The notes under the pieces: model-generated
The model's database searches: none
The model's input: only the letters and a program-made list of their open reading frames with translations
Told to the model about the DNA's origin: nothing
NCBI RefSeq assembly: GCF_024298765.1
Contig: NZ_CP101210.1
Length of the DNA stretch: 64,000 bases
From: Escherichia coli
Lineage (GTDB): Bacteria > Pseudomonadota > Gammaproteobacteria > Enterobacterales > Enterobacteriaceae
Reading direction: 5' to 3' (one strand)
Part shown: positions 6,578 through 59,961 of the stretch, in pieces
Numbering within the stretch: position 1 is the stretch's first letter
Layout: each line of letters begins with the position of its first letter
Program-made: the position numbers and the translations under genes

Positions 6578-6722
6578 GCAGGTGTAGGATCCAAACGCGG
6601 TCGGACACAGCAACTATTTGCGTAATTATATGAGGCATTTGCGACAAAAACTGGAACAGGATCTCGCCCGCCCCGCCATTTCATTACTGAAACCAGTATT
6701 GGGTATCGGTTTATGCTTTGAA
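6578..6722 (+). repeat. Degenerate direct copy of the kdpE 3' end (about 90% identity to 2243..2389)
   Basis: Aligned by eye: caggtgt..ccaaacgcggtcg..ttgcgacaaaaactggaacagga..attactgaaacc.gtattgggtatcggtttatgctttgaa; kdpE reading frame is lost after an indel. Confidence 0.85.
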
Positions 6723-6844
6723 AAAAGTGGCATTGTATGGATAAAGTCATTTTTTATTCACATATAAGGAACTTAATATTTAAAAAATGTCCCATACAAT
6801 GCCTCATCATAAATGACACCGTAGCATACAAGGAGCAAGTAGCG

Positions 6845-7240
6845 ATGCGTGATTGGACACAACGCCCTGAATTCGCAAGCGTGCGGGCTTTACCCATCGC
6901 CGATGATGTCGCAGGGGGAATTTTCTTAATGGTGGCGATCTTGGGGAAGATACTGGCTGCGTTTATTATTTTGCGCCAGATACGCTGATTTGGGAAAGTC
7001 TGGAGGTTGGATATTCTGAGTTTCTTCAGTGGGCATTATCCGGTGATTTAGATACCTTCAATGAAAATGTACGCTGGCCGCAATGGCAAGAAGACGTAAT
7101 AAAATTATCGGCAACGGAAGCCTTCACTTTCTACCCTTTCTTATGGGTACAAAGTGAAGAAGCAAGAACAAGAAAAGTTATTTCGCTTACTGAACTCTGG
7201 GAAATGCAGTATCAAATGAAAGAAACATTCACGCAATAAG
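6845..7240 (+). pseudogene. Frameshifted ORF remnant (ybfG-like); N-terminal 47 codons in one frame, about 100 further codons in another frame with no start
   Basis: ORF MRDWTQRPEFASVRALPIADD... ends at 6988; the adjacent frame reads ...FAPDTLIWESLEVGYSEFLQWALSGDLDTFNENVRWPQWQEDVIKLS...KETFTQ* without an ATG. Confidence 0.3.
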
Positions 7241-7774: not shown

Positions 7775-7825
7775 TTTGAATTCCCTTGAGCTATTCAGTT
7801 TGTTGGCAAAGTGCTCGTTGTTCAT

Positions 7826-7930
7826 GCCGGATGCGGCGTGAACGCCTTATCCGGCCTACAAAATCGCGTAAATTCAATATATTGCACCATCTTCCCAGGC
7901 CTGATAAGCGTAGCGCATCAGGCAGTCATA
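7826..7930. repeat. REP/BIME palindromic elements
   Basis: Two inverted REP units (gccggatgcggcgtgaacgccttatccggcctaca ... aggcctgataagcgtagcgcatcaggca). Confidence 0.6.
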
Positions 7931-7934
7931 AGTA

Positions 7935-8640
7935 ATAAATATCCTCCGGCATAGCCGGAGGTTTTTCAAATGCGCCTATAAGGCTCTCTTACCAGCCGCG
8001 CCCTAACAGGCGCACACGATCTGACATTTGCATCCAACTTCGTTACTTACGGCCCGTAAACGGGCTGCCCGGATAGGGAATCGATAACTGCTCTCCCATT
8101 TTATCCTCTTCAAGCTGGTGCTTTATGTAATCCTGTATCTTCGCCGTGTTCTTACCCACCGTATCGACGTAGTACCCTCTGCACCAGAACTCTCTGTTCC
8201 TGTATTTGAATTTCAAATCACCAAACTGCTCGTAAAGCATCAGACTGCTTTTCCCTTTCAGATATCCCATAAAGCCGGATACACTCATTTTGGGCGGGAT
8301 CTCCACAAGCATATGGATATGATCTGCACAGCATTCAGCTTCAAGAATCCGTACGCTTTTCCACTCACACAGCTTTCTCAAAATACTGCCTATTGCTCTA
8401 CGCTTCTCTCTGTAGAACACTTGTCTTCGGTATTTTGGCGCAAAAACTATGTGATATTTACAGTTCCATCGGGTGTGCGCTAAGCTCTTTTCGTTCCCCA
8501 TTGGGACCCCCTTTTGATTTCTTGTTTGACACTTGCAGTTGCCAGACCGCAAGGTGTTTTAACAAATCAAAAGGGGTTTTAATAACTGGCTCAAAGCTGA
8601 AAGCTTTCCGGAACCCCCAGCCTAGCTGGGGGTTTTCTGT
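7935..8640 (-). mobile_element. IS200-family insertion sequence (boundaries approximate)
   Basis: Contains a Y1 HUH transposase gene plus subterminal hairpins (cccccagc-cta-gctggggg at 8614..8632; cctccggcatagccggagg at 7943..7961); about 0.7 kb, as expected for IS200. Confidence 0.55.
8043..8501 (-). CDS. tnpA: IS200 transposase TnpA (152 aa)
   Basis: Near-identical to Salmonella IS200 TnpA as I recall it (MGNEKSLAHTRWNCKYHIVFAPKYRR...HIHML...CRGYYVDTVG); HUH motif and catalytic Tyr present. Confidence 0.85.
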   Translation of the reverse strand: MGNEKSLAHTRWNCKYHIVFAPKYRRQVFYREKRRAIGSILRKLCEWKSVRILEAECCADHIHMLVEIPPKMSVSGFMGYLKGKSSLMLYEQFGDLKFKYRNREFWCRGYYVDTVGKNTAKIQDYIKHQLEEDKMGEQLSIPYPGSPFTGRK

Positions 8641-8647
8641 GCACAAA

Positions 8648-8676
8648 AAAGGGCGATCTTCCGACCGCCCTTTTTC
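8648..8676 (-). terminator. Terminator downstream of pgm
   Basis: Hairpin gggcg...cgccc flanked by A/T runs immediately 3' of the pgm stop. Confidence 0.5.
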
Positions 8677-8689
8677 TTATTAAATGTGT

Positions 8690-10330
8690 TTACGCGTTTT
8701 TCAGAACTTCGCTAACAATCTCAACCGCTTCTTTCTCAATTTGCTTGCGATGTTCTTCCCCGAGGAAGCTTTCGCAATAAATCTTGTACGCGTCTTCCGT
8801 GCCTGACGGACGCGCGGCGAACCAGCCGTTGTCAGTCATCACTTTCAGACCGCCAATAGAAGCACCGTTGCCCGGAGCAGCAGTCAGGCGTGCGGTGATC
8901 GGGTCACCTGCCAGGGTGCTGGCGCTCACCATTTCCGGAGACAGTTTAGACAGCGCCGCTTTTTGTGCGGAAGTCGCGGCTGCCTGCAAACGGTTGTAGC
9001 TCGGCGCACCAAAGCGTTTTGCCAGTTCGTTGTAGTGTTCCTGCGGATTCTTACCGGTAACAGCGGTGATTTCCGCCGCCAGCAGACACATAATGATGCC
9101 GTCTTTATCGGTGGACCACGGCGTGCCGTCGAAACGCAGGAAGGAAGCCCCTGCGCTCTCTTCGCCGCCAAAGCCGAAGCTGCCGTCGAACAGACCATCA
9201 ACAAACCATTTGAAACCTACCGGGACTTCTACCAGCTTACGGCCCAAGTCATTGACCACACGGTCGATCATCGCAGATGAAACCAGCGTTTTACCGACAG
9301 CAACATCTTTGCCCCACTGCGGACGGTGCTGGAACAGGTAGTTGATCGCCACCGCCAGGTAGTGGTTCGGATTCATCAAACCTGCCGGAGTGACGATACC
9401 GTGACGGTCATAATCCGGGTCGTTAGCAAACGCCAGATCGAACTTATCACGCAGTGCCAGCAGGCCCGCCATCGCACACTCGGAGGAGCAGTCCATACGG
9501 ATCGCACCGTCTTTATCTAGGTGCATAAAGCGGAAGGTTTGATCGACCTGATCGTTAACGATGGTCAGGTTGAGGTTGTAATACTCGCCAATACGCTTCC
9601 AGTATTCGATACCAGAACCGCCCAGCGGATCGACACCCAGCGTCAGGCCCGCTTTCTGAATCGCTGCCATATCAACGATATCGGCCAGCCCTTCCACGAA
9701 CGGCTGCACCAGATCCTGCTCTTTCACATGACCGGATGCCATCGCTTCGTCGAGGGAGATACGCTTCACGCCTTTCAGGCCATCAGCCATCAGTGCGTTG
9801 GCCCTGTCTTCCACCACTTTAGTGACGTTGGTATCAGCCGGGCCACCATTTGGCGGATTGTACTTGATACCACCATCTTCCGGCGGGTTATGAGACGGTG
9901 TAATCACGATACCGTCTGCCAGCGGGCCACCTTTTTTATTGTGAACCAGAATGGCATTGGAAATGGCAGGTGTCGGAGTGAAGCCATTGTTTTCCTGCAC
10001 AATGATATCAACACCGTTCGCTGCCAGCACTTCCAGTACGGAAATGAACGCAGGCTCGGACAGGGCGTGAGTATCTTTACCCACATAGCAAGGGCCAGTG
10101 ATGCCGTTTTTCGCACGTTCTTCAGCAATTGCCTGAGCGATCGCCAGAATGTGCGGCTCGTTAAAGCTGTGGCGCGCTGCACTGCCACGGTGACCGGAAG
10201 TACCGAATTTCACCGCGTGCTCCGCATTCCCTGCTTCTGGTTTCAGTACATAATATTGCGCCGTCAGTTGGGCGACGTTAATCAAATCACTCTGTTGTGC
10301 AGGTTGGCCTGCACGATTGTGGATTGCCAT
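8690..10330 (-). CDS. pgm: Phosphoglucomutase (546 aa)
   Basis: Alpha-D-phosphohexomutase signature (TPSHNP); start at MAIHNRAG. Confidence 0.95.
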
Positions 10331-27056: not shown

Positions 27057-27133
27057 GGCTACGTAGCTCAGTTGGTTAGAGCACATCACTCATAATGATG
27101 GGGTCACAGGTTCGAATCCCGTCGTAGCCACCA
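27057..27133 (+). tRNA. metT: tRNA-Met (elongator, anticodon CAT)
   Basis: 77-nt cloverleaf ggctacgtagctcagttggttagagc...cat..ggttcgaatcc...cca. Confidence 0.95.
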
Positions 27134-27142
27134 TCTTTTTTT

Positions 27143-27227
27143 GCGGGAGTGGCGAAATTGGTAGACGCACCAGATTTAGGTTCTGGCGCCGCAAGGTGTG
27201 CGAGTTCAAGTCTCGCCTCCCGCACCA
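27143..27227 (+). tRNA. leuW: tRNA-Leu (anticodon TAG, long variable arm)
   Basis: 85-nt type II tRNA gcgggagtggcgaaattggtagacgc...tttaggt... Confidence 0.9.
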
Positions 27228-27250
27228 TTCACCAGAAAGCGTTGTACGGA

Positions 27251-27325
27251 TGGGGTATCGCCAAGCGGTAAGGCACCGGTTTTTGATACCGGCATTCCCT
27301 GGTTCAAATCCAGGTACCCCAGCCA
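27251..27325 (+). tRNA. glnU: tRNA-Gln (anticodon TTG)
   Basis: 75 nt; anticodon loop ttttgat; T-loop ttcaaat differs by one base from the next copy. Confidence 0.9.
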
Positions 27326-27359
27326 TCTTCTTCGAGTAAGCGGTTCACCGCCCGGTTAT

Positions 27360-27434
27360 TGGGGTATCGCCAAGCGGTAAGGCACCGGTTTTTGATACCG
27401 GCATTCCCTGGTTCGAATCCAGGTACCCCAGCCA
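27360..27434 (+). tRNA. glnW: tRNA-Gln (anticodon TTG)
   Basis: 75 nt; near-identical to the previous copy, with T-loop ttcgaat. Confidence 0.9.
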
Positions 27435-27449
27435 TCGAAGAAACAATCT

Positions 27450-27526
27450 GGCTACGTAGCTCAGTTGGTTAGAGCACATCACTCATAATGATGGGGTCAC
27501 AGGTTCGAATCCCGTCGTAGCCACCA
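27450..27526 (+). tRNA. metU: tRNA-Met (elongator, anticodon CAT)
   Basis: 77 nt; identical to the first tRNA-Met. Confidence 0.95.
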
Positions 27527-27574
27527 AATTCTGAATGTGTCGAATATGTTCGGCAAATTCAAAAACCAATTTGT

Positions 27575-27649
27575 TGGGGTATCGCCAAGCGGTAAGGCAC
27601 CGGATTCTGATTCCGGCATTCCGAGGTTCGAATCCTCGTACCCCAGCCA
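27575..27649 (+). tRNA. glnV: tRNA-Gln (anticodon CTG)
   Basis: 75 nt; anticodon loop attctga. Confidence 0.9.
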
Positions 27650-27686
27650 CTTTATTCAAGACGCTTACATCGTAAGTGCACCCAGT

Positions 27687-27761
27687 TGGGGTATCGCCAA
27701 GCGGTAAGGCACCGGATTCTGATTCCGGCATTCCGAGGTTCGAATCCTCGTACCCCAGCCA
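27687..27761 (+). tRNA. glnX: tRNA-Gln (anticodon CTG)
   Basis: 75 nt; identical to the previous CTG copy. Confidence 0.9.
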
Positions 27762-37257: not shown

Positions 37258-38166
37258 ATGCAATTACGTAAACCTGCCACAGCAATCCTGGCCCTGGCGC
37301 TTTCCGCAGGACTGGCACAGGCAGATGACGCCGCCCCGGCAGCAGGCAGTACGCTGGACAAAATCGCCAAAAACGGCGTGATTGTCGTCGGTCACCGTGA
37401 ATCTTCAGTACCTTTCTCTTATTACGACAATCAGCAAAAAGTGGTGGGCTACTCGCAGGATTACTCCAACGCCATTGTTGAAGCAGTGAAAAAGAAACTC
37501 AACAAACCAGACTTACAGGTGAAATTGATTCCGATCACCTCACAAAACCGTATTCCACTGCTGCAAAACGGCACTTTCGATTTTGAATGCGGTTCTACCA
37601 CCAACAATGCCGAACGCCAAAAACAGGCGGCTTTCTCTGACACTATTTTCGTGGTCGGTACGCGCCTGCTGACCAAAAAGGGCGGCGATATCAAAGATTT
37701 TGCCGACCTGAAAGGCAAAGCCGTAGTCGTCACTTCCGGCACCACCTCTGAAGTTTTGCTCAACAAACTGAATGAAGAGCAAAAAATGAATATGCGCATC
37801 ATCAGCGCCAAAGATCACGGTGACTCTTTCCGTACCCTGGAAAGCGGTCGTGCCGTTGCCTTTATGATGGATGATGCTCTGCTGGCCGGTGAACGTGCGA
37901 AAGCGAAGAAACCAGACAACTGGGAAATCGTCGGCAAGCCGCAGTCTCAGGAAGCCTATGGTTGCATGTTGCGTAAAGACGATCCGCAGTTCAAAAAGCT
38001 GATGGATGATACCATCGCTCAGGTGCAGACCTCCGGTGAAGCGGAAAAATGGTTTGATAAGTGGTTCAAAAATCCAATTCCGCCGAAAAACCTGAACATG
38101 AATTTCGAACTGTCAGACGAAATGAAAGCACTGTTCAAAGAACCGAATGACAAGGCACTGAACTAA
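37258..38166 (+). CDS. gltI: Glutamate/aspartate ABC transporter periplasmic binding protein (302 aa)
   Basis: Signal peptide MQLRKPATAILALALSAGLAQA; start placed at the internal ATG. Confidence 0.95.
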   Translation: MQLRKPATAILALALSAGLAQADDAAPAAGSTLDKIAKNGVIVVGHRESSVPFSYYDNQQKVVGYSQDYSNAIVEAVKKKLNKPDLQVKLIPITSQNRIPLLQNGTFDFECGSTTNNAERQKQAAFSDTIFVVGTRLLTKKGGDIKDFADLKGKAVVVTSGTTSEVLLNKLNEEQKMNMRIISAKDHGDSFRTLESGRAVAFMMDDALLAGERAKAKKPDNWEIVGKPQSQEAYGCMLRKDDPQFKKLMDDTIAQVQTSGEAEKWFDKWFKNPIPPKNLNMNFELSDEMKALFKEPNDKALN

Positions 38167-38323
38167 TTACAAGAACCAGGGGCGGAAATTCCAGCCCTCT
38201 CGATTGTTACGTAGCACGGACAGACTATACGCCTGGTGGTCGTTCCCCATCGGGCCTGAAAACCGCAATACGCTGGGTAACAATCTTCGAGGGTAGCAGT
38301 TAACGCTGCTACCCTCTTTTTTC
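38165..38323 (+). ncRNA. sroC: Probable SroC sRNA (gltI 3' UTR-derived); 5' end approximate
   Basis: gltI-gltJ intergenic region ending in a strong terminator (gagggtagcag-ttaacg-ctgctaccctc followed by TTTTTT); location matches the known SroC locus. Confidence 0.45.
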
Positions 38324-38335
38324 TGGAGTAGATTT

Positions 38336-59528: not shown

Positions 59529-59559
59529 CAAAAAAAACCCGCTGATTAAGCGGGTTTTG
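59529..59559. terminator. Bidirectional terminator between crcB and cspE
   Basis: Hairpin aacccgct-gatta-agcgggtt flanked by A and T runs. Confidence 0.7.
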
Positions 59560-59577
59560 AATTCTTGCTGACGTATC

Positions 59578-59787
59578 TTACAGAGCGATTACGTTTGCAG
59601 CAGAAGGGCCTTTGGCACCGTTAGTGATTTCGAACTCTACGCGCTGACCTTCAGCAAGAGTTTTAAAACCATTAGTCTGGATTGCAGAGAAGTGTACGAA
59701 CACGTCTTTGCTGCCGTCTTCCGGAGTAATGAAACCGAATCCTTTGGACTCATTAAACCACTTAACGTTACCTTTAATCTTAGACAT
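59578..59787 (-). CDS. cspE: Cold-shock-domain protein CspE (69 aa)
   Basis: [20 protein letters not shown]... with RNP motifs; ORF-track start is extended. Confidence 0.95.
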
Positions 59788-59961
59788 CAAAATTACCTTT
59801 ACATGAAAAATAGACACAAATGCTGTGTCGGTTACCAGTACACCAATTGTGGTACGCTTTGTCCAGTGCAACTTTACTAAAAAGTGATAAAAGTCGCGTT
59901 ATTTTTGATGTTAATTATTTTACTCATTGATTTTAAAGAGTTTACTAAAATTTCATTTGTC

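Follow-up and report, generated by a model that had tools for sequence, protein, structure and literature searches.

The 64,000-nucleotide stretch of the Escherichia coli chromosome analysed here (the window) almost certainly holds a complete and intact 711-bp copy of IS200C, an element of the IS200 group within the IS200/IS605 family, which lies on the minus strand at 7934-8644 and begins directly behind the Rho-independent terminator of pgm. As a piece of DNA the element is ordinary, already catalogued and common in E. coli. Its position next to a terminator is a general habit of the IS200 group and not an accident of this locus, because all eight E. coli sites and 101 of the 118 junctions listed for the group follow a hairpin and a T-run.

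The name IS200C is that of the PGAP annotation and not of an ISfinder reference. In genomes that match the region at 100% identity, the gene bears the PGAP product name 'IS200/IS605-like element IS200C family transposase' (WP_000526135.1), and the element is 100% identical over 706 bp to copies with a PGAP-named IS200C TnpA at many loci. With a size of ~0.7 kb, it contains tnpA as the only open reading frame matched to a protein family and has no tnpB; the remaining open reading frames inside it run on the opposite strand over tnpA or across the left end. TnpA, with the N-terminus MGNEKSLAHTRWNCKYHIVFAPKYRRQ, matched Pfam Y1_Tnp (3.8e-38) and NCBIfam transpos_IS200 (147.7 bits, cut-off 55), and carries the HUH motif as H61-I-H63 and a catalytic Tyr125 in YIKHQ. 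Its relatives in the PDB are 2ec2 (4e-23), the IS608 TnpA 2a6m (4e-19) and 2xm3 (2e-16), and both the HUH motif and the tyrosine align with those of solved IS200/IS605 transposases. Compared with the TnpA of Salmonella enterica IS200, which we reconstructed from P0001/P0058, seven of the 152 residues differ (95.4% identity), while the elements themselves measure 707 bp in Salmonella (PMC4513863) and 711 bp in IS200C.

We place the ends at 7934 and 8644 (Table 1), and the length at 711 bp, because the empty sites, about 50 other copies and the alignment to IS1541 agree on them. The frames 7935-8645 and 7936-8646 are equivalent to this one, since T residues flank both cut points and leave an ambiguity of 2 nt. 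The termini read GTGCACAG...TATTTATT, and eight distinct E. coli sites show the same left end (LE), GTGCACAGAAAACCCCC..., and the same right end (RE), ...CCGGAGGATATTTATT, followed by unrelated DNA. The earlier note on this DNA, made from the letters alone, had proposed an IS200-family element just downstream of the pgm terminator, and the Pfam and NCBIfam matches, the ends and the PGAP name all agree with it. Its description of a 152-aa Y1/HUH transposase near-identical to that of Salmonella IS200 was a fair one, the subterminal hairpins that it took to be of IS200 type are present at both ends, and its placement of the element between the pgm terminator and a REP cluster was correct. Flanks that failed to match IS200 ends would have spoken against it; both ends match those of IS200 and IS1541. 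Its coordinates, 7935-8640, located the element but missed the ends, the right one by 1 nt and the left one by 4 nt.

Table 1. Positions, in window coordinates, of the IS200C copy, its parts and its immediate flanks.
Feature	Position	Strand	Remarks
IS200C element	7934..8644	-	LE at 8644, RE at 7934
LE tip GTGCACAGAA	8635..8644	-	between cleavage point and hairpin; conserved in 8/8 E. coli sites
LE subterminal hairpin AACCCCCAGC-TAG-GCTGGGGGTT	8612..8634	-	perfect 10-bp inverted repeat, ten nt inside the tip
5'UTR stem-loop	8508..8576	-	16-nt inverted repeat, 94% complementary; between LE hairpin and ATG
Antisense sRNA art200 (STnc490), predicted	8493..8582	+	approximate; coordinates transferred by homology from the ATG at 8501
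tnpA, 152-aa Y1 HUH transposase	8043..8501	-	including stop codon; from open reading frame list and profile matches
RE subterminal hairpin CCTCCGGC-TAT-GCCGGAGG	7943..7961	-	8-bp stem, nine nt inside the tip
RE tip ATATTTATT	7934..7942	-	invariant in ~45 IS1541 copies and 8 E. coli sites; unrelated sequence beyond
pgm Rho-independent terminator (target site)	8645..8675	-	A5, GGGCGGTC-GGAA-GATCGCCC, then T6
REP/BIME cluster	about 7820..7924		on the RE side, outside the IS; unchanged in K-12

An inverted-repeat search of the element found no terminal inverted repeats joining the two termini. The hairpins at its two ends repeat one another in direct orientation, with 78% identity over 23 nt, and each has an A-run before it on the top strand. 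The LE hairpin, which is presumably bound by TnpA, folds as DNA at -11.7 kcal/mol, and none of 200 shuffled sequences was equally stable. A compensatory variant of the RE hairpin, CCACCGG/CCGGTGG, occurs in one Vibrio copy, and in all copies the element terminates in TTATT at the RE, which fits the target motif TTNTT. The LE tip varies in other taxa, where all variants finish in GAAA/AGAAA; by analogy with IS608, the A-run just 5' of the foot of the LE hairpin may act as a guide to the T-rich point of cleavage, and the family would predict such a guide-like role for the A-runs at both ends, which stand 5' of their hairpins and opposite T-rich cut sites. Together with the pgm-side flank, the LE tip of the present copy forms the near-palindrome TTTTTTGTGCACAGAAAA.

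The left end has the same architecture as that of Salmonella IS200, including the LE terminator hairpin (~nt 12-34), the 5'UTR stem-loop and STnc490/art200, and when nt 1 is set at 8644 the regulatory features of the Salmonella element land at their expected positions in IS200C. In Salmonella, the counterpart of the LE hairpin is a bidirectional terminator at nt 12-34 that blocks incoming transcription, a stem-loop at nt 69-138 sequesters the Shine-Dalgarno sequence, and a 90-nt antisense RNA, art200, formerly called STnc490, is encoded (Ellis et al. 2015, PMC4513863). In the window, the 5'UTR stem-loop folds as RNA at -40.4 kcal/mol (z = -3.8), and the full Rfam model of STnc490 (RF01405) matched at 8511-8634 with 146 bits against a gathering score of 56. 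This match runs in the sense of tnpA, and the 5' end of the model falls on the terminator hairpin. Because Ellis et al. 2015 (PMC4513863) place art200 antisense to the 5'UTR of tnpA and the Rfam match is in sense, the match marks the region but may give the wrong strand for the sRNA; by homology, art200 would lie on the opposite strand, as listed in Table 1.

At the pgm locus, the IS begins right after the sixth T of the terminator, whose hairpin and T-tract are undamaged, and in the fold of 8600-8690 (-25.5 kcal/mol, z = -6.2) the LE hairpin stands next to that of the terminator. The stop codon of pgm is at 8690-8692. A simple terminator scan left the pgm terminator unflagged, though the fold shows its hairpin clearly, probably because the A5/T5 pairs were counted into the stem and too few T remained. 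At the other end, a 9-nt stretch of original spacer (7925-7933) separates the IS from the REP cluster, where the REP-derived Rfam family naRNA4 gave partial matches under its gathering score. K-12 ER3413 has the empty site at this locus, and to our knowledge IS200 is absent from K-12 genome-wide. Read in pgm orientation, the empty site in K-12 is ...GATCGCCCTTTTTT|ACGTATGAC..., and the occupied site in the window is ...GATCGCCCTTTTTT|GTGCACAG...[IS]...GGATATTTATT|ACTTATGAC.... When 7934-8644 was removed in silico, the resulting 120-nt junction was found over its full length and at 100% identity in 12 E. coli genomes; against this exact empty site the insertion is precise, with no target duplication or deletion. 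At window position 7924/7925, where the spacer joins the REP cluster to the pgm terminator, K-12 ER3413 is longer by 11 nt (ATTCTGTGTTT in window orientation). A deletion caused by the IS was considered as the source of this difference and rejected: 12 genomes without the IS carry the short version too, so that the difference is a polymorphism among lineages and was not left behind by the insertion.

In genomic terms, the window corresponds to the speF-potE ... pgm-seqA part of the E. coli chromosome. At ~6590-7240 (+), in the interval from potE to the lipoprotein gene, it has a winged-helix fragment and a frameshifted DUF2625 pseudogene, as annotated by PGAP in an identical genome, and in K-12 the winged-helix fragment and the DUF2625 gene are both pseudogenes too. 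Further along lie a seven-gene tRNA cluster, Met-Leu-Gln-Gln-Met-Gln-Gln, at 27057-27761 (+), the sRNA sroC at 38162-38324 (+) and a match to the cspA-type 5'UTR thermoregulator at 59530-59888 (-), all of which are ordinary for this chromosomal region.

Across the E. coli copies, the LE lies 31-52 bp past the stop codon of a co-oriented gene in seven of eight sites (htpX, mukB, fabF, gltX, pgm, fdnI and icd), whereas at the eighth, near ykgR, the 300 nt upstream hold no annotated gene. In all eight, the LE comes immediately after a GC hairpin with a T-run. We also scanned species-representative genomes with the 22-mer of the LE hairpin and obtained at least 120 loci; those listed include Yersinia, Vibrio, Brenneria, Dickeya, Edwardsiella, Pluralibacter and Budvicia, and also MAGs labelled Oxalobacter, Mailhella/Desulfovibrio, Bacillota, Peptococcaceae, Saccharibacteria and Elusimicrobiaceae. 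Under a strict definition (a stem of 5 bp or more that ends no farther than 12 nt from the junction, with 4 or more T among the last 8 nt), a hairpin plus T-run was found at 101 of the 118 distinct IS200-group junctions (86%) among the matches listed, compared with 2.1% of random positions and 23% of the ends of T5 runs taken as controls. The target motif at the 118 sites listed is TTNTT, in which T occupies positions -5 (96% of them), -4 (83%), -2 (98%) and -1 (89%), and -3 is free; the LE abuts this motif, which resembles the RE cleavage-site sequence TTATT.

The association with terminators is already known and not new. Odaert and colleagues, in the Journal of Bacteriology in 1998 (J Bacteriol 180:178), reportedly saw terminator-like stem-loops in 8 of the 14 IS1541 sites that they studied and termed these hot spots. 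[quoted passage not shown] 2015 (PMC4513863) gave no insertion-site data. With respect to replication, 77 of 90 loci had a positive flanking GC skew when read along the IS top strand (p = 3e-12), a bias that is confounded with gene orientation. In K-12, pgm is on the plus strand at 0.71 Mb, and the IS copy is co-oriented with it; by the standard K-12 replication map, which puts the locus in the right replichore, we take the top strand of this copy to lie on the lagging-strand template. A preference for the lagging-strand template has been reported for the IS200/IS605 family (PMC5027513), and this placement would agree with it, as would the skew within the limits of its confounding.

Yersinia pestis NCTC5923 contains head-to-tail tandems of IS1541 (L076, L077, L079, L093 and L123). 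In these, the second LE follows the first RE tip either directly (...ATATTTATT|GTGCCC) or after a single additional T, which suggests that the RE itself serves as a target.

Among the MAGs (L011-L014, L017-L038, L044, L048-L051 and L064-L072), the exact 22-nt LE hairpin is usually found ~90-110 nt from a contig end, which suggests assemblies broken by repeats. These loci point to a very wide horizontal spread of the IS200 group, with binning errors as a possible contribution. At a locus in Dickeya undicola (L074, match 697-718), the LE tip and hairpin run directly into the LE tip in reverse complement and an A-run. The resulting TTTTTTGTCTATAGAAA-hairpin-TTCTATAGACAAAAAAA is a long perfect palindrome with no tnpA, perhaps a miniature element or a derivative reduced to a solo LE. 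Six further loci (L039-L042, L104 and L130), where the LE hairpin and tip are present with no recognisable RE ~711 bp downstream, are truncated, interrupted or solo left ends.

Going by its family membership, IS200C would move through the single-strand 'peel and paste' pathway. TnpA would bind both subterminal hairpins on the top strand and cut 5' of the LE tip and 3' of the RE tip, and the excised single-stranded circle would be pasted 3' of a short target motif without duplication of the target. At pgm, this target would have been the TTTTT closing the T-tract of the terminator, on a top strand that, judging from the K-12 map position, would be part of the lagging-strand template. Once inserted, the element would be kept nearly silent by the three features known from Salmonella IS200: the LE hairpin would terminate read-through from pgm, the 5'UTR stem-loop would hide the ribosome-binding site, and art200 would be the third. 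IS200 has been described as almost dormant (PMC4513863).

Insertions of the group follow a GC hairpin and TTNTT, a structure like the element's own RE (hairpin plus ATATTTATT). We tentatively propose that target choice depends on structure as well as sequence, and that a terminator in single-stranded form (A-run, GC hairpin, TTNTT) might be mistaken by the transposase for the element's own RE (AAAAA, hairpin, ATATTTATT) and cleaved equivalently. If true, this would explain why at least 86% of the listed junctions, from Enterobacteria to MAGs of Bacillota, Desulfovibrionaceae and Saccharibacteria, are exactly at the end of a terminator T-tract, and it would also explain the head-to-tail tandems. 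We know of no demonstration of such a mechanism.

It is equally conceivable, if short of probable, that the association with terminators comes solely from the preference for TTNTT combined with purifying selection, the hairpin going unrecognised by the transposase and insertions just past terminators persisting because they are harmless. The conserved part of the target does consist of T-runs, a 4-nt target read by base pairing suffices in the IS608 paradigm, and ~14% of the listed junctions lack a hairpin by the strict definition. However, most of these show imperfect or large-loop hairpins by eye, and a hairpin accompanies 86% of the listed junctions, compared with 23% of the non-coding and 12% of the coding TTNTT sites within those loci. 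The IS1541 tandems, moreover, start exactly after the RE hairpin and TTATT of the other copy. Genomic sites alone fit either targeting or selection after insertion, and the apparent role of the hairpin could be the product of selection.

Full-length IS200C (at least 80% of the query) was found in 2063 of 5426 complete E. coli genomes, and some match in 3096, at 1 to 35 places per genome. Plasmids gave 1230 records with a match, mostly fragments, with 172 near full length, and published pangenome work lists IS200C among the multi-copy IS of E. coli. The insertion at pgm is present in 72 of the 5426 complete genomes (1.3%). Over 1306 bp, at least 60 of these 72 carriers show 100% identity, and at least 12 of the carriers match the first 25 kb of the window at 100%. 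Avian isolates, from chicken, turkey and other birds, dominate the carriers, with some from human, pig, dog and water. Strain names among them, such as those of the APEC O78:H4 strains, hint that the carriers may belong to ST117/phylogroup G. The earlier note had regarded the presence of IS200 as a landmark for strain typing. Carriage as such is too frequent to serve as a rare mark, but the insertion at pgm is a reasonable landmark, and its junction can be used as a lineage marker.

The identical flanks in at least 60 genomes are consistent with one old, clonally inherited event, and the copy could then be regarded as a fixed relic, structurally intact but effectively immobile in this lineage and of use only as a passive marker. 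We consider this unlikely. The open reading frame, ends and regulatory region are intact and identical to those of copies elsewhere in the same genomes (nine places in strain 104, for example), 100% identical empty junctions exist and make the insertion polymorphic among E. coli, and the copy number ranges from 1 to 35. A domesticated REP-associated tyrosine transposase (RAYT/TnpA-REP) belonging to the REP cluster, in place of a mobile IS, was rejected with near certainty: REP sequences do lie 9 nt from the right end and NCBIfam REP_Tyr_transpos did match weakly, but at 32 bits against a cut-off of 80 (transpos_IS200, 147.7), the REPs are on one side only and unchanged in the precise empty site, and the identical 711 bp occur at many unrelated loci, in up to 35 places per genome, whereas transposases of that kind are single-locus (PMC3333891).

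Among known relatives, IS1541A/B of Y. pestis aligns with nt 1-711 of IS200C at 87.6-87.7% DNA identity. The 22-mer of the LE hairpin, the RE hairpin and the RE tip are identical in the two, and IS1541 occupies the same hairpin-plus-T-run insertion sites; its LE tip differs, GTGCCCAG against GTGCACAG, and its copy number in Y. pestis is much higher, with more than 50 junctions from one genome. IS608 of Helicobacter pylori and ISDra2 resemble IS200C in their homologous Y1 HUH TnpA, in their subterminal hairpins, in having neither terminal inverted repeats nor target duplications, and in inserting 3' of a short motif, and they show a lagging-strand-template bias. Both also carry tnpB and have TTAC and TTGAT as targets, whereas IS200C has no tnpB and a T-rich target, TTNTT, nearly always preceded by a hairpin. 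RAYTs have a distantly related Y1 HUH fold and, like IS200C, are tied to hairpin-forming repeats; in contrast to IS200C, they form a separate clade, stay at a single locus between flanking REP/BIME sequences and are not mobile as a unit. Group IIC introns, which are unrelated mobile elements, are also found just downstream of terminator motifs, given in PMC1702495 as an inverted repeat and then T's. These introns are RNA-based retroelements, and their likeness to IS200C is in target choice only.

At pgm, the insertion took up a harmless intergenic position that left the terminator, the downstream REP cluster and the lipoprotein gene intact. The pgm::IS200C junction is a clean presence/absence marker, while IS200 carriage by itself is unremarkable in E. 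coli. For the IS200 group, strict placement behind terminators allows a minimal transposon to reach dozens of copies without gene breakage, and the same placement shields its transposase from outside transcription.
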